Below, piece after piece: positions 5,546 through 30,112 of a stretch of DNA of 30,947 nt; the first letter of the stretch is position 1, and each line of letters begins with the position of its first letter. Source of the DNA: a virus. Its lineage: Duplodnaviria > Heunggongvirae > Uroviricota > Caudoviricetes. Below the pieces are notes generated by a model, which searched no databases, had not been told where the DNA came from, and worked only from the letters and a program-made list of their open reading frames with translations. The position numbers and the translations under genes are program-made. The DNA lies in the IMG/VR virus record IMGVR_UViG_2534682078_000030, one strand, 5' to 3'.

Positions 5546-6575
5546 CATCAAGAAGAGCATAAGAATTAAAACGGATCACCTCTTCGCCAAGCCAGTCATT
5601 GATGTGCTTCATGGCCTCCATAACGGGCATCAGCTCGTTAATTGCATAAACCCGCGCGGCCTTCTCCACATCACCAAACGCACTTTTTTCGCCCGGCATC
5701 GCCCCCATCAGTTGCGGCGGAACACGGTGCGCAGCCAGCACATCATCACGGGATGCCGCCTTAACATTCATGAACTCATCTTTTGCGGTGATCTGCTGGA
5801 ACGGCAAAATTTGCACCCCCTCTTTGCCCCCGTTGGGCGCATGAATGAGCACGTTTTTAAATGCACCACTACCACGTGCACCCTGTAATGTTTCTTTCAG
5901 GGAGTCCATGCTTTCGCGGTTTACCTGCGCTGCACCGATGTAGATGATGCACCCGGCGTGGGATCCGTTGTCGTAATACAGTTTTCTGAACATGTCCGCC
6001 GAATGAGACAGGCTGGCCGAGAGTAATGCGCCGAGATATTCCGGCATGCCGTAGATTTCCTGGTTAATATCCGGATTCATCAGGTGGCACACTTTGCCAG
6101 GGCGAAACTGAAACGCGTCCTTGCCATCCTGCACATACCACCATGATTCAAGATCGCTTCCGCGTCGCATGTATTTCGCCAGTGCGTGCCGTAATTTAAG
6201 CGGTTCGCCGAGCATATTGCTTCGAAGCTCAAGGTATGCGTTACCGAACACAAACCAGTCCAGCGCCAGCGCCGAGAAATCCTGCCGGGAAAGCAGCGGG
6301 TGCGGAATATAGCAGCCGAGCAATACATTGCGCTTAAAGTAAAGCGCAGACTGATGCCAGGACGTTTGCCGGGCGGCTCTTGCCAGACCGTACCAGTCCA
6401 CCGGGGTTTCATACCACCGCCCGTTATCAGCACAGTACATATTGTCCAGCAAATCATGCCCGGTCAGGCGATAAGGACCATCAAAAGTGAATGCACTGAG
6501 CGACGATTCTTTCCTGAGCGCATCAGCGAGATCAATGCGTGAACTCATGCGCACTTTTTTATTTTTTCTGCTCAT
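5529..6575 (-). CDS. Q: Portal protein (P2 gpQ family)
   Basis: 348 aa, immediately downstream of and overlapping the terminase large subunit on the same strand, as in P2; length and position fit gpQ. Confidence 0.8.
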   Translation of the reverse strand: MSRKNKKVRMSSRIDLADALRKESSLSAFTFDGPYRLTGHDLLDNMYCADNGRWYETPVDWYGLARAARQTSWHQSALYFKRNVLLGCYIPHPLLSRQDFSALALDWFVFGNAYLELRSNMLGEPLKLRHALAKYMRRGSDLESWWYVQDGKDAFQFRPGKVCHLMNPDINQEIYGMPEYLGALLSASLSHSADMFRKLYYDNGSHAGCIIYIGAAQVNRESMDSLKETLQGARGSGAFKNVLIHAPNGGKEGVQILPFQQITAKDEFMNVKAASRDDVLAAHRVPPQLMGAMPGEKSAFGDVEKAARVYAINELMPVMEAMKHINDWLGEEVIRFNSYALLDEKTAP

Positions 6576-8326
6576 CAGAACTCCATAACCGTGAAACGCT
6601 CGTTTTCTCCTTCGCCGCCAATTGGTTCGTTAATGACAGCAAGCATGGTTGCCCACGCAAGGTCGCCGTGGCTGATCCCCCTCGCGCGGTCCGTTTCGTA
6701 AGTGATAAAACCGCCCGGTGTTTTCACCTTACGCACGGCGTTAAAGGCCGCGACCAGCTCGCGTTCGGCGCGATCGTATTCCCACCGCCCGGCACGCATT
6801 ATTTGCAGCATTTTCAGTACCAGCGACCGTTTTGATGACAGCGTGAAGGTGTACGGAATAGCAGCAGGGAAAAACCGTTTCACTATCTGATAAACAGCCT
6901 CCCCGTTCCCGCCCGTCACATCAATGCCGATGTGTTCCACGTTGTAGCGACACGTGAACTCTTCAATGACTCTGGCCTGTTCTTCAAACTCCAGCCCCTG
7001 AACGCGTCGCGTCTCCACCGTTCGAAAACGGCCACCAGGAACAGCCGGAGGAACCACCACAGACACAGCGCCGCTGTCGCCGTTGCCACTGCTGCCGTTT
7101 GCGTCATACCCAATCCATACCGGACGATTCCCCATCGGGCGGGGAGCAAAAGGTTTCCAGTCTTTCCAGTCGTCGTATCCGTCAACACCGCAGCCAATCA
7201 GGATATTCAGGTTAAATGCCGATTCCCCTTCGCGGACAAACTCACACATATAGAGATTGAGGAACTCGTCTTCGGTGTTTTCATCACGAATTTCGTCGAT
7301 ATCGGTGTGTTTCCAGCCGTGATTAACCACATCTTCCAGCGTGACAATTTGCCGCCACGTCCGGTCAGGGCAGATAAGCCCGTTATGCAGCGTATTCCAG
7401 TCCACAGAAAAACGCCGGCGTTTATGCGTGGCCTTTTTCTCGTTCCAGCGGTCGCCGTTCCAGTAGGCGTATGCTTCGTGCGTTTCGGTGGATGGCGTGG
7501 AGAAGTAGGTGCGCCGCAGTCCGCTGAGGGTTGCCATAGCGCCAGCCACCTTGCGCAGTTCAGCAAAGCGACTGACCCAGAAAAATTCATCAAAATAAAA
7601 ATTGCCCGTATAGGACTGCGCCGACGCAGCAGAAGTGCCGAGAAAATGCAGCTCTGCGCCATTGGAGAGGATGATTTTATCGCCCCCTTTCAGCTCCACA
7701 TCAACTTCAGCCGCAGCCTTCTGAATAATGCTTTTAAACTGGAACGCCTGACGACGCGACGCAGACAAAAAAATCTGGTTACGCTGGTAAGGTTGCGCCA
7801 CATCGTCACGCAGCGCCATCAGCAGAGCTTCCTGTGCAAAATACCAGGTCGCCCCAATCTGTCGGGATTTCAGGATCATCCTGTTACGTATCCCGGCTTC
7901 CCTGCAAAGGGTCAGGGAGTCAAACCAGCCCCGCTGATGCCACTCCAGCCTGCTGATGATTTTTTCCCGCAGTGCGGAAATCTGTTCCGGCGTGAAATGA
8001 TTTTTGAGTTTTTTCGCCCGGCCTTTCTTTCCTGCGGCCATCACATCCGGATGGCCATCATGCAGCTTTTTAAGCTGCCGGGTCAGCAGGTCTATTTCCT
8101 TAAAGTCACCGCCTGTTTTATTCTGTTTTTCAGTAAGCTGGATGAGGCGCGCATCGATGGACTGCGTGACACGCTGCACGGGTGGCGTTTCATCCCACTG
8201 GTCGCGTTTTTTCCACGCATAAATCGTGTTCGGGTTTATTCCCATCAGACGTGATATTTCTGCGGGCGGATAACCCTGCCAGTAAAGTTGCCGCGCACGC
8301 TGGCGCACAAAAGCGTCCTGAATCAT
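6575..8326 (-). CDS. P: Terminase large subunit (P2 gpP family)
   Basis: 583 aa; divergent from the O-N-M-L operon across a 120-bp intergenic region, as in P2. Confidence 0.85.
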   Translation of the reverse strand: MIQDAFVRQRARQLYWQGYPPAEISRLMGINPNTIYAWKKRDQWDETPPVQRVTQSIDARLIQLTEKQNKTGGDFKEIDLLTRQLKKLHDGHPDVMAAGKKGRAKKLKNHFTPEQISALREKIISRLEWHQRGWFDSLTLCREAGIRNRMILKSRQIGATWYFAQEALLMALRDDVAQPYQRNQIFLSASRRQAFQFKSIIQKAAAEVDVELKGGDKIILSNGAELHFLGTSAASAQSYTGNFYFDEFFWVSRFAELRKVAGAMATLSGLRRTYFSTPSTETHEAYAYWNGDRWNEKKATHKRRRFSVDWNTLHNGLICPDRTWRQIVTLEDVVNHGWKHTDIDEIRDENTEDEFLNLYMCEFVREGESAFNLNILIGCGVDGYDDWKDWKPFAPRPMGNRPVWIGYDANGSSGNGDSGAVSVVVPPAVPGGRFRTVETRRVQGLEFEEQARVIEEFTCRYNVEHIGIDVTGGNGEAVYQIVKRFFPAAIPYTFTLSSKRSLVLKMLQIMRAGRWEYDRAERELVAAFNAVRKVKTPGGFITYETDRARGISHGDLAWATMLAVINEPIGGEGENERFTVMEF

Positions 8327-13155: not shown

Positions 13156-13306
13156 TACTCCCACATGGGGAAATCTCGGTATATGGGGCGACCGCCTTCT
13201 GGATGCACTGGAAACCTGTAACGCGGATAAACGGGCCATTGAATTACTGGAACAGCGCAGGCTGCAACGACTGAACAACGAGGATAACAACCATGCTGAA
13301 AACTGA
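12986..13306 (+). CDS. o-spanin lipoprotein (Rz1/LysC-like), overlapping the i-spanin in the +1 frame
   Basis: Lipobox LLTGC after a short hydrophobic signal and a Pro-rich mature region; starts inside the i-spanin gene and extends beyond it. Alternative start at 13016. Confidence 0.6.
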   Translation: MNSYATILQKMNAPTLCLTLVLLTGCAGTQNAPLPAPSVRLIPQTLTIPVTPPRFPDTPTWGNLGIWGDRLLDALETCNADKRAIELLEQRRLQRLNNEDNNHAEN

Positions 13307-13760
13307 TTCCCTGCGTGAAGCCATGACCCGTTCATGCCGATGGTGTCAGGCCAACCCGGAAAAATTCACCATTTTCGTGGAGAGCGGCAACATTGAAACG
13401 ACCGGAGAAACCCCATCGTTTGTTTACCGCTATCAGATGGTGATGTTTGTCATGGATTACGCCGGGGAGCTGGACGACCTCACGCTGCCGCTGCTGGCGT
13501 GGTTATCCGAAAATCAGCCACAGTTGTTGCTCAACCCTGAGCGTAATCAGGACATCAAATTCTCCGCCGTTATCAATGACGATGACAGCGCCGATCTCCT
13601 GTTTACGCTCCCCCTGCGGGAACGCGTTCGCATCACGCGCAGCAGTCAGGGGACACCGCAGGCAGAACACCTGCCGGAGCCAAAACCCCGCCTGCCATCT
13701 CCCGAAGGCGACTGGTCGCATGTATTCCAGGATGTGACGTGGGGTGAAAGCGATGGATAA
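13293..13760 (+). CDS. R: Tail completion protein (P2 gpR family)
   Basis: 155 aa, MLKTDSLREAMT...LLAWLSENQP resembles gpR. Confidence 0.8.
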   Translation: MLKTDSLREAMTRSCRWCQANPEKFTIFVESGNIETTGETPSFVYRYQMVMFVMDYAGELDDLTLPLLAWLSENQPQLLLNPERNQDIKFSAVINDDDSADLLFTLPLRERVRITRSSQGTPQAEHLPEPKPRLPSPEGDWSHVFQDVTWGESDG

Positions 13761-16738: not shown

Positions 16739-18871
16739 ATGAGTACCACAACACGAAAATTTAAAACCGTTATCACCGATACAGGTGCCAAAAAATTAGC
16801 TCAGGCAGCCGCGCCAGATGGTAAGCCTGTCCGCCTGACTCATATGGCCGTGGGCGACGGTGGCGGCGCGTTGCCCACACCAGACAGTAAGCAGACCCGT
16901 CTGGTGCATGAGGTGTGGCGACACACTGTTAATCGCGTCATCCTGGACGCAACACATCAGAACCGCATTATTGCGGAGCTGGTTATTCCTCCAGAAACGG
17001 GCGGATTCTGGATCCGGGAAATTGGTGTGTTTGATGAGCACGGCGATTTAATCGCGGTGGGCAATACTGCCGAAAGTTACAAGCCAGCCGTTGCCGAAGG
17101 GTCCGGACGTGCACAAACATTTCGCACCATTCTGACCGTATCCAGCACTGCCACTGTGGCGCTTACCGTGGATAACACCATGGTGATGGCCACAGTGGAT
17201 TACGTGGATAACAAACTGAAAGAGCATGAACAGTCACGACGTCACCCGGATGCCTCGCTGACCGCAAAAGGCTTTGTTCAACTCAGTAGCGCCACTAACA
17301 GCGATTCTGAAACGCTGGCTGCAACGCCGAAAGCGGTTAAGGTCGCGTATGATCTTGCTAACGGAAAATATACAGCGCAGGATGCCACAACAGCGCGAAA
17401 AGGCCTTGTCCAGCTTAGTAGTGCAACCAACAGTACATCTGAAACGCTGGCGGCAACTTCAAATGCAGTAAAAGCTGCCTATGACAATGCTGAAAAACGT
17501 CTGCAGAAAGCTAAGAATGGTGAGGATATCTCTGATAAAGACACCTTTACGAAAAATATCGGTGCCTGCCGTGCATATAGTGCAGAGCTGAATATTGGTG
17601 GAGATAGTGAAGCATGGACAACTGCGCAGTTGATTTTTTGGCTAGAGAGTCAGGGGGCATTTAACCATCCTTACTGGATGTGCAAAGGCTCATGGGCTTA
17701 TGCAAATAATAAGGTCATTACAGATACAGGTTGCGGAAGTATTTGTCTTGCAGGTGCTGTTGTGGAAGTTATTGGCACCCGCGGCGCAATGACCATACGC
17801 ATTACCACACCGAGTACATCCAGCGGTGAAGGCATCCCTAATGCTCAATTTACTTATATTAATCATGGTGATGCTTATGCTCCTGGCTGGCGAAGGGACT
17901 ATAACTCCAGGAATAAGCCAACAGCATCAGAGATCGGGGCGTTACCGTCAGATGGGACAGCAGTATCGTCAGTTAATCTGGCTTCAAAAGGTCGGCTGAC
18001 CGCCCTGACAGATAATATGCAGGGGGCCACAGGTCTGGAGTTATACGAGGCGTATAACAACGGATATCCAACAACGTATGGAAATATCATTCACCTGAAA
18101 GGGATGACAGCCGTTGGCGAAGGCGAATTACTCATCGGCTGGAGTGGTATAAGCGGTGCTCATGCTCCGGCATTTATTCGTTCACGACGGGATACGACCG
18201 ACGCAAACTGGTCGCCGTGGGCGCAGCTTTACACCTCGGCTCATCCTCCTGAAGAGTTTTATCCAGTCGGTGCACCGATTCCGTGGCCATCAGATACCGT
18301 TCCGTCTGGTTATGCCCTGATACAGGGGCAGACTTTTGACAAATCTGCATACCCGAAACTTGCAGTCGCTTATCCGTCAGGCGTTATTCCTGATATGCGT
18401 GGCTGGACTATCAAGGGCAAACCTGCCAGTGGTCGTGCCGTATTGTCTCAGGAACAGGACGGCATTAAATCGCACACCCACAGCGCCAGCGCATCCAGTA
18501 CTGATTTGGGGACGAAAACCACATCGTCGTTTGATTACGGTACTAAAACGACCAGTTCATTTGATTACGGCACAAAAACCACAAATAGCGCAGGAGCTCA
18601 TTCACACAATATACCTGTTGGTCACACTGGCGCGGGGAATGGTGTATCAGCCGGTTATAACGCTGCGTTAGGTACAGGTACCACGTCGAGCGCAGGAGGG
18701 CATGCTCACAATGTATATATCGGTGCCCATAACCACACTATCGGCATTGGTGCTCATGCCCATTCTGTCATTATTGGTCCCCACGGACACACCATCACCG
18801 TTAATGCTACGGGGAACGCAGAAAACACCGTAAAAAACATCGCATTTAACTATATTGTGAGGCTTGCATAA
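16739..18871 (+). CDS. H: Tail fibre protein (P2 gpH family) with divergent His-rich C-terminal receptor-binding region
   Basis: N-terminal 250 aa align with P2 gpH ([15 protein letters not shown]...[10 protein letters not shown]...[17 protein letters not shown]...). C-terminus has tandem [10 protein letters not shown] repeats and HxH motifs. Confidence 0.9.
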
Positions 18872-19447
18872 TGACATTCAGAATGAGTGAACAATCACGG
18901 ACCATAAAAATTTATAATCTACTGACCGGAACCAATGAGTTTATTGGTGAAGGTGATGCATACATTCCACCTCATACAGGTCTGCCTGCAAACAGTACCG
19001 ATATTGCCCCGCCAGATATTCCGGCTGGCTTCGTGGCCGTTTTCAACAGTGATGAGGCATCGTGGAATCTCGTTGAAGACCATCGGGGAAAAACCGTCTA
19101 TGACGTGGCTTCCGGCGACGCGTTATTTATTTCTGAACTCGGTCCATTACCGGAAAATGTTACCTGGTTGTCGCCGTATGGAGAGTATCAGAAGTGGAAC
19201 GGCACATCCTGGGTGAAAGATGCAGAAGCAGAAAAACTGTTTCGGATAAGGGAGGCGGAAGAACAAAAACAGCCTGATGCAGGTAGCCAGCGAGCATATT
19301 GCGCCACTTCAGGATGCCGTAGATTTGGATATTGCAACGGAGGAAGAGGCATCGTTACTGGCTGCATGGAAGACATACCGGGTATTGTTGAATCGTGTTA
19401 ATACAGCGGTAGCAGCGGATGTTGAGTGGCCAGTCGCCCCACAATAA
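18871..19447 (+). pseudogene. G: Tail fibre assembly chaperone (gpG/Tfa family), frameshifted at an A5 run (19265-19269)
   Basis: Frame 1 ends at 19401 with an atypical Cys-rich tail. The -1 frame from the A run encodes the conserved Tfa C-terminus [58 protein letters not shown], ending at about 19447. Confidence 0.6.
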
Positions 19448-19490
19448 AGAGAAAAAGCCATCGATTGAAATATAGATGGCTTTATGTACT

Positions 19491-20063
19491 CTATTTATAC
19501 AATACAACACCGCTCTTTTTAGTTATATATGTGCAGTTCGATGGTATATCTTTATTTATAAAAGACATTGCACCTATTTTTACATTATCCCCAATTTTAC
19601 GTGATAATCCAATGATGCAACAATTAGCTCCGATATCAACGTTACTACCAATTTTTACTCTTGAACCAGGCATGTCACCATCTATCTGTCCAATGGTAGT
19701 ATTCTGTCGTAACACCAGATTTTCACCAGCATCAACAGCAAAATGAACAACAATTCCAGCATGATGGGGAATTGTTAACCCTTTTCCAATATTTGCGCCC
19801 AATCCAATTTCACAACCAAATTTGTTAATTATTTTACTGTTTAACTTTTTGGCTGCTTTCTTATGTAATTTATTACCATTAATATACATTTCGTTAGCCA
19901 ACCGCCACCAGAAAAGGAAATTCCGGTTACGCTGTTTTTTCTCTCTTAAAAGCCTCCAGATATCCATACGTTTCCGCCGAATTACTTCATATTTCCAGAA
20001 GTTTTTTAAATTAGTAGAGTCCCCAAATAAAACAAAGTGAATTGCCATTAAGTAAGACAGCAC
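19491..20063 (-). CDS. Hexapeptide-repeat (left-handed beta-helix) acetyltransferase, cargo gene at the Z/fun position
   Basis: Repeated [LIV]-G-x-x-x-x hexads (IGLGANIGKGLTI, VKIGSNVDIGANCCIIG, KIGDNVKIGAMSF); AT-rich. Likely GTG start at 20063 with SD AAGGAG (the tracked ORF starts at 20096). Confidence 0.7.
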   Translation of the reverse strand: MLSYLMAIHFVLFGDSTNLKNFWKYEVIRRKRMDIWRLLREKKQRNRNFLFWWRLANEMYINGNKLHKKAAKKLNSKIINKFGCEIGLGANIGKGLTIPHHAGIVVHFAVDAGENLVLRQNTTIGQIDGDMPGSRVKIGSNVDIGANCCIIGLSRKIGDNVKIGAMSFINKDIPSNCTYITKKSGVVLYK

Positions 20064-20114
20064 GATAATCTCCTTAATTATTATTTCAGACCACACATAT
20101 TATAAGGTTAAGAG

Positions 20115-20143
20115 ATTATAAAATCCTGTTGTTTGTTATTCAA
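20115..20143 (-). promoter_or_regulatory. Candidate sigma70 promoter TTGAAT-17-TATAAT for the acetyltransferase
   Basis: On the minus strand: -35 TTGAAT (20143-20138), 17-bp spacer, perfect -10 TATAAT (20120-20115), about 50 bp upstream of the start codon. Confidence 0.5.
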
Positions 20144-20219
20144 AAACAATTTTCTGAGAAGGACATACAACAGCAAGTCGCCAGTCACCTTCATCAGGAA
20201 ATTGGCGACATACGTTAAA

Positions 20220-20714
20220 TCAGAGCAGCCCCTTAACTGAGCTGGTCGCGCTATTAAGGGATGATGTCACCTTATCTTTGAAGCCGGACAACATATCGCT
20301 GAACGATGAGGATTGCAGGCGCTCCCGCAAATCCTCATCACAGCGTTCAAGAGTCAGTGAAAATTCTATCTTTTTCGCCTTACCGTAGCGATCAAACTCG
20401 GAGCGGGTCGTATTCGTTCCGGTCAGGACATACATGCCGTAAATCTGCCCGACACCATCAATCAGAGGCCAGGGGCGTCCTGTATATGCCTGCGTGGTCA
20501 GCAGAGACAGCGACACTTCGCCACCTGTAATTTCAGGATAAAGCACGCCGGAAAGCACGATGCGATCATCACCTGCACCGATATACTGCCAGCTTGCTGA
20601 ACGGTTAACACGTTCATTTTTCACATGCCGCCAGCTTTTGTTTTGCTGTAACTGCTGATGCGGCAGTGTGCGCAGCTCAAAAACAAACATGCCGTAGATC
20701 ATCATCATGACCAT
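20220..20714 (-). CDS. U: Tail protein (P2 gpU family)
   Basis: 164 aa; YGMFVFELRTLPHQQLQQNKSWRH resembles the gpU N-terminus; directly downstream of the tape measure gene. Confidence 0.85.
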   Translation of the reverse strand: MVMMMIYGMFVFELRTLPHQQLQQNKSWRHVKNERVNRSASWQYIGAGDDRIVLSGVLYPEITGGEVSLSLLTTQAYTGRPWPLIDGVGQIYGMYVLTGTNTTRSEFDRYGKAKKIEFSLTLERCDEDLRERLQSSSFSDMLSGFKDKVTSSLNSATSSVKGLL

Positions 20715-24893: not shown

Positions 24894-25220
24894 ATGACTA
24901 AAAATACTCGTTTTTCCCCCGAAGTCCGTCAGCGGGCGATTCGTATGGTTCTGGAAAGTCAGGATGAATATGACTCACAGTGGGCGGCAATTTGTTCCAT
25001 TGCCCCAAAGATTGGCTGTACGCCGGAGACTCTGCGTGTCTGGGTTCGCCAGCATGAGCGGGATACCGGGGGCGGTGATGGTGGGCTCACCAGCGCTGAA
25101 CGTCAGCGTCTGAAAGAGCTGGAACGTGAAAATCGTGAACTGCGCCGCAGTAACGATATCCTTCGCCAGTCTTCCGCTTATTTTGCGAAGGCGGAGTTCG
25201 ACCGCCTCTGGAAAAAATGA
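24894..25220 (+). CDS. IS3-family transposase OrfA (helix-turn-helix, leucine zipper)
   Basis: 108 aa, [41 protein letters not shown]..., which I recognise as IS629/IS1203 OrfA. Confidence 0.9.
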
Positions 25221-26107
25221 TGCCACTGCTGGATAAGCTGCGTGAGCAGTACGGGGTCGGACCGGTATGCAGCGAACTGCATATTGCCCCGTCAACGTAT
25301 TACCATTGTCAGCAACAGCGACATCATCCGGATAAACGCAGTGCCCGTGCGCAGCACGACGACTGGCTGAAGAGAGAGATACAGCGCGTATACGATGAAA
25401 ATCATCAGGTGTACGGTGTGCGTAAAGTCTGGCGTCAGTTGTTACGGGAAGGAATCAGGGTGGCCAGATGTACAGTGGCACGTCTCATGGCGGTTATGGG
25501 ACTTGCCGGTGTTCTCCGGGGTAAAAAGGTCCGTACGACCATCAGCCGGAAAGCCGTTGCCGCAGGCGACCGCGTAAACCGTCAGTTCGTGGCAGAACGA
25601 CCTGACCAGCTGTGGGTGGCTGATTTTACTTACGTCAGCACATGGCAGGGCTTCGTCTATGTGGCGTTTATCATTGATGTGTTTGCCGGATACATCGTGG
25701 GGTGGCGGGTCTCATCGTCTATGGAAACGACATTCGTGCTGGATGCGCTGGAGCAGGCGTTGTGGGCCCGTCGTCCGTCTGGCACCATCCATCACAGCGA
25801 TAAAGGCTCTCAGTATGTGTCACTGGCCTATACGGAGCGACTAAAAGAAGCCGGATTACTGGCATCAACAGGGAGTACAGGCGACTCGTATGACAACGCG
25901 ATGGCTGAGAGCATCAATGGTCTTTACAAAGCGGAGGTAATACACCGTAAGAGCTGGAAAAACCGTGCAGAAGTGGAACTGGCCACACTAACGTGGGTGG
26001 ACTGGTATAACAATCGACGATTGCTGGGAAGGCTGGGCCATACTCCTCCGGCAGAAGCAGAAAAAGCTTATTATGCTTCCATCGGAAACGATGATCTGGC
26101 AGCCTGA
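25217..26107 (+). CDS. IS3-family transposase OrfB (DDE catalytic domain)
   Basis: 296 aa in the -1 frame relative to orfA, normally expressed as an OrfAB fusion by frameshifting at the A run. Confidence 0.9.
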
Positions 26108-26149
26108 GTTCACAGATAAAACACTCTCCAGGAAACCCGGGGCGGTTCA

Positions 26150-26152
26150 GAT
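26150..26152. repeat. Target-site duplication GAT, right copy
   Basis: Triplet immediately 3' of the IS terminus ...GGGCGGTTCA. Confidence 0.8.
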
Positions 26153-27275
26153 GGCACTGATAACATCCTTCACGTTCGCAGGCGTCAGTGGACTGTCGAT
26201 GGTTTCAAACTGCGCTTCCGCAATTGAATCAGCAAGCACCTGTGCGGTTCGGGTATACACCTCAAAGATGTAGGCGTTCGTTTCCGGTGTGCGGTTGCCC
26301 CAGAAGCGGAACCCGTTGCGACGAATAATGGTCGTGATTTCTTTGTTGTTGAGGCTGTTGGCATCGCTGTCTTCGGCCTGCAACGACCAGAACACATGCC
26401 TCGACATCCCCAGCACATTTTTAACCGGAACGTTGGACAGTGATTTGTGCCAGCCCTGCTCATGGTCAATGTACGCACGAAGGCCGCACGCATAGGCAGG
26501 CGCGGGGAACGTTTCGTTTTTGCCACTTTTCGGGTTGTAGGCGATGAAGTCCGGCCATAAGAGCATCACCTCACGTTCGTTGAATTTCTGGCGGTAGGTA
26601 ATCGCCTCAGCCATCGTGTTACAGCCGTGACATGAGGCATACACAAACGCGCGCAGTTTACCCGCAATCACGCACAGGGATTTTGTTACCGCCTCCGTGT
26701 CCAGCTCCGGCGCGGCCAGAATACGCGGACGGTATCCGATGCTTTCATCCTGCTCTGCAACAAGCAGCGCATACATCCCCGTATAGCTGCCGTCAGATTC
26801 AGAACCACCGATAACCAGTTGATCCTGCGTTTTTCCGTCTTCTTCTTTATGTTCAGCCACGCGAACGACGATCACCTTTGTGCTCACCTGGTCTGCGATG
26901 GCCTTAAGCGCACGATAAAGCGTCCCCGTTGTTCCGCATTTTCCCAGCACGTCATTGACGCGGGTCAGCAGTGTGGGCTTGTTCAGCGGGAACAGCTCCG
27001 CGTCCGCATCATCCGCCGTTGCCACGATACCGATAACACTGGAATCAACATCATTAATCGCTGTTACCAGGTCGGTACTTTCCGTAACACGGGCACCATG
27101 AAAACGAGTTTCACTCATAGCTTCAGCCCCTTGTATCCGTTAAATGATTCGGCAACAATCATCACCCACCACGCGCGTAATCTCACCCCTGCGCCGTTCT
27201 CCCGCCCCGGCGACAACAAAAAGCAGTAACCCCCTCCGCACGCACATGCGACCATGCCGCACAGGGAGGGAGCAG

Positions 27276-28384
27276 ATGACCGACACCACCATGCAATTGC
27301 TCAGTCAGGGCACAGACCCCGTGAAAATGCCGGATTTTGATATTCTCGCGGAGGGTAAAACGCTGTCAGGCGTGGCAGAGCGCCTGATGAGCCTGTCACT
27401 GACCGACAACCGGGGATTTGAGGCGGACCAGCTCACCATCACGCTGGATGATGCGGATGGTCAGTTGCAGCTACCGCCACGGGGCGCGCGCCTGACGGTT
27501 CTCATTGGCTGGAAAGGAGAACCGCTGACAGAAAAAGGCACTTACATTGTTGATGAAATCGCTCACGAAGGACCGCCGGACAGGCTGACTGTTTCAGCCA
27601 GAAGCGCAGATTTTCGGGATGAATTTAACGTTAAACGTGAGGTGTCCTGGCATGATGTGACCGTTGAGCGTGTGGTATCCGCCATCGCTCATCGGTATGG
27701 TCTGAAACCGCAAATCAGCGAAATGCTGATGGATATCGAAATCGACCACGCCGACCAGACCGAAGAAAGCGACATGTCCTTCCTTACGCGCATGGCGGAA
27801 ATGCTGGGCGCAATCACCACGGTAAAAAGAGGTAATCTGTTATTCATCATGCCCGGCGGTGGCGTGAACGCACAGGGCCAGCCGTTGCCCTCGTTCGCCA
27901 TCACACGCAGCAGCGGCGATCGCCATCAGTTCCGCATTGCTGACCGCGAAGCGTATACGGGGGTACGCGCTTACTGGCTTGATCTTAATTACGGGAAAAA
28001 GAAAAAGTCAGCGTGAAACGCCGCAAACCGTCAAAACCAAAAAAGGAGAAAAGCAGCAGCCGGGAAGGCGACTATATGGAAGGTGCGGAAGGCAACGTGT
28101 TTGTGTTACGCAAAACTTATCAGAACGAGCAGGCAGCAAGACGTGCAGCGGCGGCAAAGTGGCAGCAGCTACAACGCGGAGCCGCATCATTCTCCATCAC
28201 ACTGGCGCATGGACGTGCAGAACTCTACCCCGAAATGCATGGCACGGTAACAGGATTTAAAAGCGAGATTGATAATCAGGACTGGATTATTGCAAAAGCC
28301 GAGCACACCATTGATAACAGCGGCTTTACCACGCAGCTTGAGCTTGAGGCAAAAATCCCGGAATGGATAGCAGAAACAGAGTGA
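27276..28384 (+). pseudogene. D: Tail protein D (P2 gpD family), split by a -1 frameshift in GGGAAAAAGAAAAAG (27993-28007)
   Basis: N part (to 28016) has SLSLTDNRGFEADQLTITLDDADGQL and SARSADFR; C part (from 28013) has REGDYMEGAEGNVF and GFTTQLELE; both are collinear with P2 gpD. ATG at 27276 is preceded by GGGAGGGA. Could equally be a homopolymer sequencing error. Confidence 0.6.
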
Positions 28385-28609: not shown

Positions 28610-30112
28610 ATGAACAAAAAGCTGTATTTATTCCCAGACTCAAACATTTTTCTACAATGCAAGGACTTGACGCAGGTAAATTTTTCCGAGATTACTGCTT
28701 GTGATGAAGTATGTATCATTATTACAAGGCCCATTCAGCAAGAGATTGACCGCCAGAAAGGGCAAGGTAATTCCCGCCTATCCAAAAAAGCAAGGAAGGC
28801 TGCTAGCCTATTTAATCAAGTAGTTGATTCAACTGACATGACTCTTGTTATTCGTGAACGCTCGCCGCGAGTTTTTCTTACCATGGATCTAAGCCTGAAA
28901 CCATGTGAACAGTTATCTGAACAATTGGATTATCAGGAGGCCGACGATCGTTTTGTTGGTATTGCGGCAGGGTATTGCGCTGACGATCCAGATTCGGAGG
29001 TGGCAATCATTACCAATGATAGCGGTCCACGTTTTTCAGCAATAAAACATAATATAATCTGCTATAAAGTGCCTTCTTCATGGTTGCTTCCTGCTGAGCC
29101 AGATGAAAAGGATAAACAAATTAAATTGCTGGAAGCTAAGCTGAAGCAATTCACTCAGTCTATGCCCGATTTCAGCATTAAAGTAGCCGATGACGAGCAA
29201 TTAAATATTGTACTTCCTTATTATACAGCTTTATCTGAATATGAAGTTGATAATTTGCTTTGTCAACTAACGGATGCATTCCCATTGGTTACAAACTTTG
29301 ACAATGAACAAACTACCCCACAATCACTAGAAAAAATCATCAAGTCATTTAGTCAACAGGAGTATTTCCCTGTATCAGCAGATGATATTTCTCTTTATAA
29401 AGAAAAACATTATCCACTTTGGAAAAAGCAGTGTGAAGAAATACTGAAAAACTGTCATACTCATATTAATCCGAAGGCAATAAAATACCCGCTGTCGTTT
29501 TTATTACAAAACACAGGTTATACTATCGCTGAACGTGCTGTGGTAACATTTACAGCAAAAGGAGATTTTCGTCTGTGTGGATTTAATTGGGAGATAATGG
29601 AAGAGCTGACTGAAAGCAAAAGGATTGACCTACCTTCAGCCCCTACCGCCCCCAAAGGAAAATGGCGTAGTGTATGTGGCGTAACAGAAAGAATGCCTTA
29701 CGCTGGGGGAGCTTTGGAAACACCGCTATCCAGTATAATTTCAAAAGAAATTGGTCCTTTGTTATCTCTTACTCCAACAGAAAGGGATAAAAACGATTTT
29801 TATTATAAAGAAAAGAGAAATGAGCCAGTTCAAGTTGTATCGCTGGAATGCGAAGAGTGGCGTCATCAAGTCAAAGAAGAAATATTCCCGTTGTTCGTAT
29901 ATACAGCCAACAAACCAAAGAAAGTGAATGGTGCAATTGAGGTGAGAGTTGATGCAAATAACCTTACCAATCCGGTCATTAAAACATTTAAATTAAAAAT
30001 AACTATAGAAGAACATAGTGCATTTTCAACCATAACAGAAATGGTGCAGACATACATTCAAGAGCAGAAGAAAAGACAGAAAAGTTCTATTAGCGCACAA
30101 ATCAAAACATGA
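28610..30112 (+). CDS. 500-aa protein with N-terminal PIN-like nuclease domain and uncharacterised C-terminal region; candidate phage-defence effector
   Basis: Long ORF with SD GAGG 9 nt upstream; AT-rich codon usage unlike the flanking phage genes. N-terminus LYLFPDSNIFLQ...IIITRPIQQEIDRQ...KKARKAASLF...VAIITNDSGP has PIN-like spacing of acidic residues. No Walker A or HEPN motif seen. Confidence 0.6.
   Translation: MNKKLYLFPDSNIFLQCKDLTQVNFSEITACDEVCIIITRPIQQEIDRQKGQGNSRLSKKARKAASLFNQVVDSTDMTLVIRERSPRVFLTMDLSLKPCEQLSEQLDYQEADDRFVGIAAGYCADDPDSEVAIITNDSGPRFSAIKHNIICYKVPSSWLLPAEPDEKDKQIKLLEAKLKQFTQSMPDFSIKVADDEQLNIVLPYYTALSEYEVDNLLCQLTDAFPLVTNFDNEQTTPQSLEKIIKSFSQQEYFPVSADDISLYKEKHYPLWKKQCEEILKNCHTHINPKAIKYPLSFLLQNTGYTIAERAVVTFTAKGDFRLCGFNWEIMEELTESKRIDLPSAPTAPKGKWRSVCGVTERMPYAGGALETPLSSIISKEIGPLLSLTPTERDKNDFYYKEKRNEPVQVVSLECEEWRHQVKEEIFPLFVYTANKPKKVNGAIEVRVDANNLTNPVIKTFKLKITIEEHSAFSTITEMVQTYIQEQKKRQKSSISAQIKT

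Follow-up and report, generated by a model that had tools for sequence, protein, structure and literature searches.

A beta-helix acyltransferase gene linked to tail-fibre assembly genes in a P88-like prophage is a candidate lysogenic-conversion factor

Introduction

In Escherichia coli K1, prophage CUS-3 encodes the polysialic-acid O-acetyltransferase NeuO (PDB 3JQY), which modifies a surface glycan that serves as a phage receptor, while Oac of phage Sf6 and the O-antigen acetylases of the GtrC/OafA type are integral-membrane acyltransferase-3 proteins that act on the periplasmic side. Here, we compare such systems to a cargo gene in a prophage from the Caudoviricetes, which is contained in a stretch of DNA of 30,947 nucleotides (nt; IMG/VR record IMGVR_UViG_2534682078_000030), hereafter referred to as the window. 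The gene is located between the tail-fibre assembly gene tfa and the tail gene gpU (positions 19448-20219), and its product is named as a serine O-acetyltransferase in RefSeq.

Our preferred reading, to which we assign a probability of roughly 0.5 on the basis of sequence comparisons, is that the gene is a moron for lysogenic conversion, the product of which would O-acetylate the core of the lipopolysaccharide (LPS) or another surface glycan and would not be CysE. Approximately a tenth of the complete E. coli genomes contain the gene, which is frequent in Shiga-toxin strains of serogroups O26, O103, O111 and O157. It is annotated everywhere as an enzyme for cysteine biosynthesis, which the residue and domain tests below contradict. 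The sequence is already found in databases and in PHROGs, and the new point is its synteny with tail-fibre and tfa genes.

The gene product and its active site

The only long open reading frame (ORF) within the tfa-gpU interval is intact and located on the minus strand, with a GTG at 20063-20061 as the preferred start codon and a further in-frame ATG at 20048-20046. The features are:

19491-20063, minus strand: coding sequence of the serine-acetyltransferase-like acyltransferase, 190 amino acids (aa), stop codon included (from the ORF list; equal in length to RefSeq WP_000954196.1)
20070-20075, minus strand: Shine-Dalgarno sequence AAGGAG, 6 nt 5' of the GTG start (direct sequence reading)

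The locus is 100% identical in E. coli E2865, the protein of which, WP_000954196.1, carries the RefSeq name "serine O-acetyltransferase". The G+C content is 34.6% for the gene and 32.7% for the upstream spacer, as compared to 52.7% for the window. The original prediction, which was made from the sequence alone, of an AT-rich gene for a left-handed beta-helix (hexapeptide) acetyltransferase is borne out by the intact 190-aa ORF, its G+C content and the profile and structure matches. A search for NeuO-like phase variation identified no tandem repeats within 19300-20300.

The product is a left-handed beta-helix (hexapeptide) acyltransferase of the serine-acetyltransferase-like branch. The protein scored 24 bits against the Pfam family Hexapep (PF00132), for which the gathering score is 27, and 17.7 against Hexapep_2, and most homologues have PF00132 or PF14602 in their precomputed annotation. 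In NCBIfam, the best matches were to EpsC (4e-21), CysE (8e-17) and WcaB (7e-15). In this assignment to a hexapeptide subfamily, which the original prediction had called for, every curated cut-off was missed. Identity as an equivalog of WcaB or EpsC was rejected because the scores are far below the NCBIfam cut-offs (75.4 bits vs. 150 for EpsC, 54-55 bits vs. 194-196 for WcaB) and because the gene is located in a prophage rather than in a polysaccharide cluster. The protein is a clear member of phrog_2154 over its full length (1.4e-87), and since this family carries no functional annotation, membership adds no mechanism.

Residue conservation was inferred from column statistics over 51 diverse family members, which were mapped to Yersinia CysE via a HMMER alignment. 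The catalytic pair is retained, with an aspartate or glutamate at position 85 in all 51 members and His100 in 50 of them, and these two residues align with Asp143 and His158 in CysE. The residues that bind serine or cysteine in E. coli CysE are Asp157, Arg192 and His193. The position of Asp157 is occupied by proline, alanine, phenylalanine, serine or glycine, and never by aspartate, in the 51 members; the position of Arg192 is an arginine in 10 members, and that of His193 falls in an alignment gap. The family has a specific motif of its own, RQNTTIG, which may form the acceptor pocket. The SATase_N domain (PF06426) was not found at E-values up to 1 in a Pfam scan of the protein, which ends (...TKKSGVVLYK) approximately 10 residues past the beta-helix, without the CysK-binding C-terminal tail ending in isoleucine. 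The scores against TIGR01172 (cysE, 61.7 bits) and PRK11132 (36.8 bits) are far below the cut-offs of 210.65 and 397, respectively.

A genuine serine O-acetyltransferase could be the product of an auxiliary metabolic gene that acts in the lysogen or while the phage grows, by raising the supply of O-acetylserine and cysteine or by triggering the CysB regulon. This would be consistent with the name used in RefSeq and in phage records, with the conserved acid-histidine pair, and with the closest solved structures, all of which are serine acetyltransferases. However, the profile similarity to these structures spans only positions 54-181, and the neighbours of homologues elsewhere are glycosyltransferase and tail-fibre genes rather than cys genes. 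With the low profile scores and the substituted serine-binding positions in addition, we consider this explanation improbable. Because the serine-binding residues, SATase_N and the C-terminal tail are missing and the cut-offs were missed, the RefSeq name is probably wrong. As judged from its residues and domains, the product is an active-looking acyltransferase, but it is neither CysE nor another serine acetyltransferase.

The option of antibiotic modification in the original prediction needs correction. No match to the curated families of xenobiotic resistance enzymes (Vat/CatB) was obtained. An enzyme for small molecules or xenobiotics, acting on antibiotics in a Vat/CatB-like manner or detoxifying sugars in a LacA/Maa-like manner, would benefit the lysogen in ways unrelated to phage receptors. 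Weak matches to galactoside and maltose O-acetyltransferases (1e-6 and 2e-4 in NCBIfam; PDB 1kqa and 3srt) point in this direction, as do homologues on bfp/EAF-type plasmids from enteropathogenic E. coli (EPEC) and on P1-like phage-plasmids that can carry resistance genes, but overall we find it unlikely.

A variable slot in P88-like prophages

The backbone of the window is 96-97% identical to phages 520873, 503458, P88 and Citrobacter phiSM (approximately 97% for phiSM), and the prophage, a member of the P2 family from E. coli, is classified by sequence as P88-like, genus Xuanwuvirus in the Peduoviridae, rather than as P2 proper. As compared to P2, the P88-like group has the FI-FII-E-T-U tail block in inverted orientation, and the cargo slot is therefore the tfa-to-gpU interval rather than the G-to-FI interval as in P2. 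The genes at its borders are:

16739-18871, plus strand: tail-fibre gene (Pfam scan and homology comparison)
18871-19447, plus strand: tail-fibre assembly gene tfa (Caudo_TAP), convergent with the cargo gene and frameshifted (comparison with E2865)
20220-20714, minus strand: tail gene gpU, the last gene of the inverted FI-FII-E-T-U operon and right border of the slot (Phage_P2_GpU, 1.5e-38)

The placement of the gene at the Z/fun position of P2, as originally proposed, is thus an analogy only. Nor does the slot normally contain cargo of the Z/fun type, since the type phage holds an invertible fibre cassette and a DNA invertase at this site. The homology to P88 breaks off midway through the fibre gene, at position 17491, and is restored from 20214 onward; the differing block is thus composed of the C-terminal part of the fibre, tfa and the cargo gene. 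In phages P88 and 520873 and in the prophages of strain CD306 and isolate ECA64, the slot contains a second, inverted tfa gene, a fibre tip and a DNA invertase, which represent an invertible host-range segment.

We surveyed 5426 complete E. coli genomes. The acetyltransferase gene was identified in 531 genomes, of which 510 contain the full junction, and the P88-like gpU/T segment was identified in 1407 genomes. About 510 of the approximately 1407 genomes with a P88-like prophage segment thus carry the gene, and many of the carriers are strains of serogroups O26, O103, O111 and O157. In addition, about 33 P1-like phage-plasmids carry the gene at 90-95% identity. Two copies that are approximately 94% identical were found in E. 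coli E2865 (NZ_AP018808.1, NZ_AP018809.1), one in the P88-like prophage and one in a P1-like phage-plasmid, and RM10386 is a further such strain.

The presence or absence of the gene among related prophages, the alternative contents of the slot and the deviant G+C content indicate that it represents accessory cargo and not a conserved core gene, as the original prediction had it. The copies in the O26, O103, O111 and O157 strains are near-identical, and the suggested serotype conversion by modification of a specific O-antigen is therefore unlikely.

Borders and transcription signals of the cassette

In E. coli A8 (NZ_CP028766.1), positions 19442-20164 are swapped for a cassette of 33% G+C with a gene for a glycosyltransferase of family 9 (GT9). 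Since the flanks are the same, this comparison defines the borders of an exchangeable cassette, promoter and terminator included. The features of the cassette and its surroundings are:

19442-20164, no strand assigned: exchangeable AT-rich cassette with terminator hairpin, gene and putative promoter (E. coli A8 homology ends at 19441 and resumes at 20165)
20115-20143, minus strand: sigma-70 promoter-like sequence TTGAAT-17-TATAAT (10 of 12 consensus matches; inside the cassette exchanged for GT9)
19454-19483, no strand assigned: hairpin of a 9-bp stem and 12-nt loop, on which tfa and the acetyltransferase gene converge (folding compared to shuffled sequences)
20178-20210, minus strand: stable hairpin directly 3' of the gpU stop codon (folding energy -22 kcal/mol, z -4.6)

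The GT9 gene in A8 (locus L016, 3192-4370) encodes a protein of 392 aa in the heptosyltransferase family, has a G+C content of 33% and is located in the tfa-to-gpU slot. Its closest relatives among the fetched loci are GT9 genes from Orbaceae that adjoin homologues of the acetyltransferase gene.

The near-consensus promoter in the original prediction was identified at 20143-20115, with the -10 hexamer ending 51 nt 5' of the start codon. However, promoter-like sites are not enriched in this 2-kb region (6 observed vs. 4.7 expected from shuffled sequences), and the site is therefore a sequence match that is a plausible promoter of the acetyltransferase gene, but no proof of function. The structure of the 5' untranslated region was not significant (z -1.0).

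The hairpin at 19454-19483 was recovered exactly as described in the original prediction, which considered it to be shared by the two convergent genes. The plus strand folds with an energy of -14.3 kcal/mol (z -4.2) and the minus strand, on which the hairpin is followed by UUUUUCUCUUUAUU, with -16.6 kcal/mol (z -4.6). The U-rich tail is restricted to the minus strand, and the hairpin would for this reason be primarily the terminator of the acetyltransferase gene, and a better one for this gene than for tfa. It was passed over in the general hairpin scan, which covered loops of up to 8 nt. In a comparison with phage JL22, the stem is kept while the loop is altered.

The hairpin at 20178-20210 is common to the A8 variant and absent from P88, the homology of which begins at 20214. 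It likely terminates the late tail operon and would shield the cargo gene from read-through. The acetyltransferase unit is thus bordered by conserved phage genes, contains the sequence signals of a promoter and a terminator, and is exchanged as a block, which is the anatomy of a moron as far as it can be read from the sequence.

Linkage to tail-fibre assembly genes

The acetyltransferase gene accompanies tfa and the tail-fibre cassette in different families of phages. The P1-like phage JL22 (ON018986.2) shares positions 18258-20055, which comprise the fibre tip, tfa, the hairpin and the ORF but exclude the promoter region, at 94% identity, and the 190-aa ORF is located between two convergent sets of fibre and chaperone genes, next to cin. 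In more diverged phages, the gene is convergent with tfa after the fibre gene, as in phiNP (Citrobacter, 44% identity), yong2 (Hafnia, 35%) and 613R2 (E. coli, 36%). The same convergent arrangement with tfa was observed in genomes of Salmonella, Buttiauxella and Gilliamella, and a homologue is located beside a fibre gene in Buttiauxella agrestis and Xenorhabdus. Among 80 viral contigs from IMG/VR, 68 contain a convergent tfa gene within 400 bp, and the diverged members are associated with at least three types of tfa. Other homologues were found at prophage ends beside integrase, hok or abortive-infection genes. This linkage had been overlooked in the original prediction, as had the frameshift in the neighbouring tfa gene.

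In JL22, the gene (locus L002, 6091-6663) is annotated as "sacF" with a length of 477 nt, which is too short; an intact ORF that starts with ATG encodes all 190 aa. An AT-rich region of 490 nt, unrelated to the upstream region in the window, precedes this ORF. A homologue with 50% identity is located on EPEC bfp (EAF-type) plasmids (loci L009-L012, gene at 6001-6594). It is surrounded by IS66 and remnants of insertion sequences (IS) and lies a few kb 3' of the operon for the bundle-forming pilus, and some database versions are extended by a long stretch at the N-terminus (P0037, 269 aa).

The identities of the acetyltransferase and the adjacent tfa protein are correlated (Spearman rho 0.88), but the correlation is driven by near-identical sequences. 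Strict co-inheritance by co-diversification with the adjacent tfa gene was rejected because the two are not tightly coupled below 70% identity. That the arrangement persists despite reassortment could reflect selection for linkage or, alternatively, the repeated capture of the gene at a favoured site.

The gene could also be a hitch-hiking or decaying passenger without a current function that is kept only by its location in a frequently exchanged tail-fibre/tfa recombination module. P88-like prophages and P1-like plasmids do share the fibre tip, tfa and the gene at the DNA level, the prophage around the gene is decayed, and truncated copies exist (P0013, P0043 and P0115). However, the ratio of nonsynonymous to synonymous substitutions (dN/dS) for the gene and its copy in JL22 is 0.19, most of the 510 carrier genomes contain a full-length ORF, and the ORF is also intact across the family at identities of 35-99%. 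The low dN/dS value and the intact ORF inside a decayed prophage show that the gene is under purifying selection. Also, all or nearly all of the 51 diverse members retain the catalytic residues, and the arrangement with tfa persists even though the identities of diverged pairs are only loosely coupled. In our assessment, a passenger without function has a low probability.

The recurrent and tight adjacency to tfa and fibre genes would likewise be expected if the enzyme were an accessory of late morphogenesis, with the tail fibre of its own phage or the assembly of that fibre as its target. We consider this very improbable, given that the gene has the opposite orientation to the fibre operon, comes with its own sigma-70-type promoter-like site, and has hairpins between itself and the late tail operon. 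Furthermore, the gene is missing from about two thirds of the prophages that are otherwise similar, and many chromosomal members of the family have no phage nearby.

Glycan genes near homologues and the candidate acceptor

The neighbours of homologous genes in other genomes include genes for glycan synthesis. In prophages of Xenorhabdus bovienii, the homologue is located beside the tail fibre and is followed after 58 nt, on the same strand, by a gene for an "LPS biosynthesis" glycosyltransferase of family 25 (GT25). In Zophobihabitans (Orbaceae), it belongs to a cluster with three GT9 genes, a polysaccharide pyruvyltransferase gene and a GT25 gene, and in another Orbaceae genome it is directly preceded by a GT9 gene, the product of which is 36% identical to the GT9 protein of the A8 prophage. 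A GT9 gene is located directly downstream of the homologue in Gilliamella, and in Mixta and Pantoea the homologue is located just before a pair of genes for GT9 and a family 4 glycosyltransferase (GT4), which we read as waaQ/waaG-like. The homologue adjoins NeuB at six loci in Halopseudomonas and Pseudomonas. The Orbaceae loci with homologues have a G+C content of 33-35%, similar to the cassette in the window.

Phages phiSM and phiNP both use glucose residues of the LPS outer core as receptor (PMC6456863). Of these, phiSM is a close backbone relative of the prophage in the window, and phiNP carries a homologue of the gene. Together, the GT9, GT25 and NeuB neighbours and the receptors of the two phages favour, by association, a surface glycan as the acceptor, most economically the LPS core. 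Modification of a surface glycan, which was one of the roles originally proposed, is also the reading that gene context supports best.

Several observations weigh against this reading. Most chromosomal members, such as those at nine Rahnella loci, are isolated and have no glycan genes as neighbours, and a Pfam scan of 75 species-level loci identified mostly unrelated housekeeping genes, with phage-tail or glycan genes in the minority. The beta-helix part of the structure model is of moderate confidence, with pLDDT values of 57-73. Of the 5426 E. coli genomes, 4354 contain the fibre tip/tfa type of the window, mostly without the gene, and an obligatory linkage to this fibre type was thus rejected. 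The region 3' of tfa serves generally as an insertion site for accessory genes, and hitch-hiking could therefore account for the synteny. To our knowledge, no O-acetyl substituent has been established in the E. coli R1-R4 or K-12 core structures. Our literature searches identified no functional study, only statements that the role is unknown: why the gene is present in JL22 is stated to be unknown in the paper on that phage, and the phiNP homologue is listed only as a "fitness" gene in the paper on C. rodentium (PMC6456863).

An intracellular role against other phages, or as a toxin, was also considered, whereby acetylation of a protein, nucleotide or charged tRNA by the enzyme would block superinfecting phages after DNA entry and not at adsorption. 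Defence genes often sit at accessory sites like Z/fun of P2, to which the prophage slot is analogous, and homologues are located beside an abortive-infection gene in phage ESSI2_ev040 and beside hicAB in phiNP. However, no PADLOC family matched the protein at E-values up to 1, the gene stands alone without partner genes in the window, and the glycan genes near homologues elsewhere point to sugar substrates. We know of no beta-helix acyltransferase among the described defence systems, and we give this explanation little credence.

According to the preferred reading, that of surface-glycan acetylation, the cargo would be a horizontally acquired and self-contained transcription unit in the tfa-gpU slot, composed of the promoter-like site, the ribosome-binding site, the gene and the terminator hairpin. 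The product is predicted to be a soluble, probably trimeric O-acyltransferase in which a left-handed beta-helix with the Asp/Glu-His pair comes after a short helical N-domain, and acetyl-CoA would be the acyl donor. The enzyme would be expressed in the lysogen from its own unit and would acetylate a sugar hydroxyl of a surface-glycan precursor at the cytoplasmic face. The most likely target is the LPS core, but the enzyme might instead modify enterobacterial common antigen, colanic acid or a further common glycan. Acetylation would change the surface met by phages that use the glycan as a receptor, and the resulting phenotype may be lysogenic conversion or receptor masking.

A wider reading, which we put forward tentatively and regard as rather doubtful, is that serine-acetyltransferase-like beta-helix acetyltransferases are conserved "receptor-editing" partners of tail-fibre/tfa host-range cassettes in temperate myoviruses, including P2-/P88-like, P1-like, phiNP-like and other phages. 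The enzyme and the fibre module would then be exchanged together, and the enzyme would O-acetylate the LPS-core sugar that the fibres recognise, thereby masking the lysogen from phages with the same receptor and preventing the loss of progeny phages on lysogen debris. In P1-like plasmids, the gene is even flanked by both of the convergent fibre/chaperone sets. The AT-rich acetyltransferase and GT9 cassettes might be derived from clusters for the modification of lipooligosaccharides in Gammaproteobacteria with low G+C contents, such as the Orbaceae.

If the LPS core or another common glycan is acetylated, the gene would represent an overlooked lysogenic-conversion factor that could affect phage susceptibility, and hence phage typing and therapy, as well as surface antigenicity and possibly the interaction with the host. 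Its position beside tfa would exemplify the joint inheritance of a receptor-binding module and a receptor-modifying enzyme. Should the enzyme prove to be an ordinary one, the correction of the annotation would still be useful.

Decay and other variable sites of the prophage

The tfa gene contains two 1-nt deletions in A-runs (19261 and 19264) as compared to the intact gene for a 192-aa protein in E2865, and the frameshift splits it into ORFs at 18871-19401 and 19277-19447. The deletions may reflect true decay or sequencing errors in homopolymers. An Rfam scan of the cassette identified no credible structured RNA, and the sole match, to the candidate E. coli small RNA IS009 (RF02111; 19214-19410, plus strand, 182 bits, E-value 2e-45), lies wholly inside tfa, in its 3' part, and extends across the frameshift site.

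The tail sheath gene is interrupted by an IS3-family element at 24894-26107 on the plus strand, with an orfA of 108 aa (HTH_Tnp_1) and an orfB of 296 aa (rve). A fragment of the sheath gene remains at 26147-27118 on the minus strand, and the 1.3-kb insertion is absent from E2865. A second IS3-family transposase gene is located at 65-946 on the minus strand, at the left end of the window. The prophage is therefore defective. The gene gpD (late control D/baseplate hub; 27144-28384, plus strand) appears as two ORFs of 290 and 123 aa, as compared to one gene for 366 aa in E2865, and the split is probably due to a further frameshift.

Two other sites differ in content from E2865. A gene for a 500-aa protein with an N-terminal PIN_4 domain (28610-30112, plus strand) is located between gpD and the ogr/hok end, where E2865 has a gene of the YecA family; this site is a further slot for variable cargo, and the gene may encode a defence protein or a toxin. 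E2865 also has a 1.9-kb DUF6645 gene (locus L001, 11991-13868) that separates the lysis genes from the first tail gene; the DUF6645 gene is absent from the corresponding site in the window (approximately 13241-13335). This DUF6645 site is a third variable slot of the lineage.

Comparison with known systems

The enzyme has the closest solved relatives in CysE (PDB 1T3D, 3GVD, 6WYE and 4N69), with which it shares the helical N-domain, the beta-helix and the pair of the Asp143/His158 type. The prophage protein is, however, approximately 80-100 residues shorter and is without SATase_N and the CysK-binding tail. WcaB from colanic acid synthesis and EpsC (NF007564, TIGR04016 and NF041874) provide the best NCBIfam matches, with profiles of 146-168 residues and a similar size and architecture, and some distant members of the prophage family are also located in glycan gene clusters with GT9, GT25, pyruvyltransferase or NeuB genes. 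In contrast to WcaB and EpsC, the prophage enzyme is carried on phages and plasmids and not in loci for colanic acid or exopolysaccharides.

With regard to the slot, the likeness to P2 Z/fun consists of the position 3' of the fibre assembly gene, the variable content and the AT-richness. It differs in that the P88-like slot is located between tfa and gpU next to an inverted tail block, and there is no sequence relation to Z/fun.

The acetylases of the Oac/OafA type have the role proposed here, lysogenic conversion by O-acetylation of LPS, and are likewise encoded by accessory genes at prophage margins. The prophage enzyme is a predicted soluble beta-helix protein and would, unlike these membrane proteins, need cytoplasmic precursors as substrates. 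The best functional analogy is provided by NeuO, although the two enzymes show no close relationship in sequence or structure and the 5' phase-variable tandem repeats of NeuO have no counterpart here. Both are prophage-borne proteins with a left-handed beta-helix, encoded beside the gene for the receptor-binding protein of the phage, and the enzyme described here would, like NeuO, be a soluble O-acetyltransferase.

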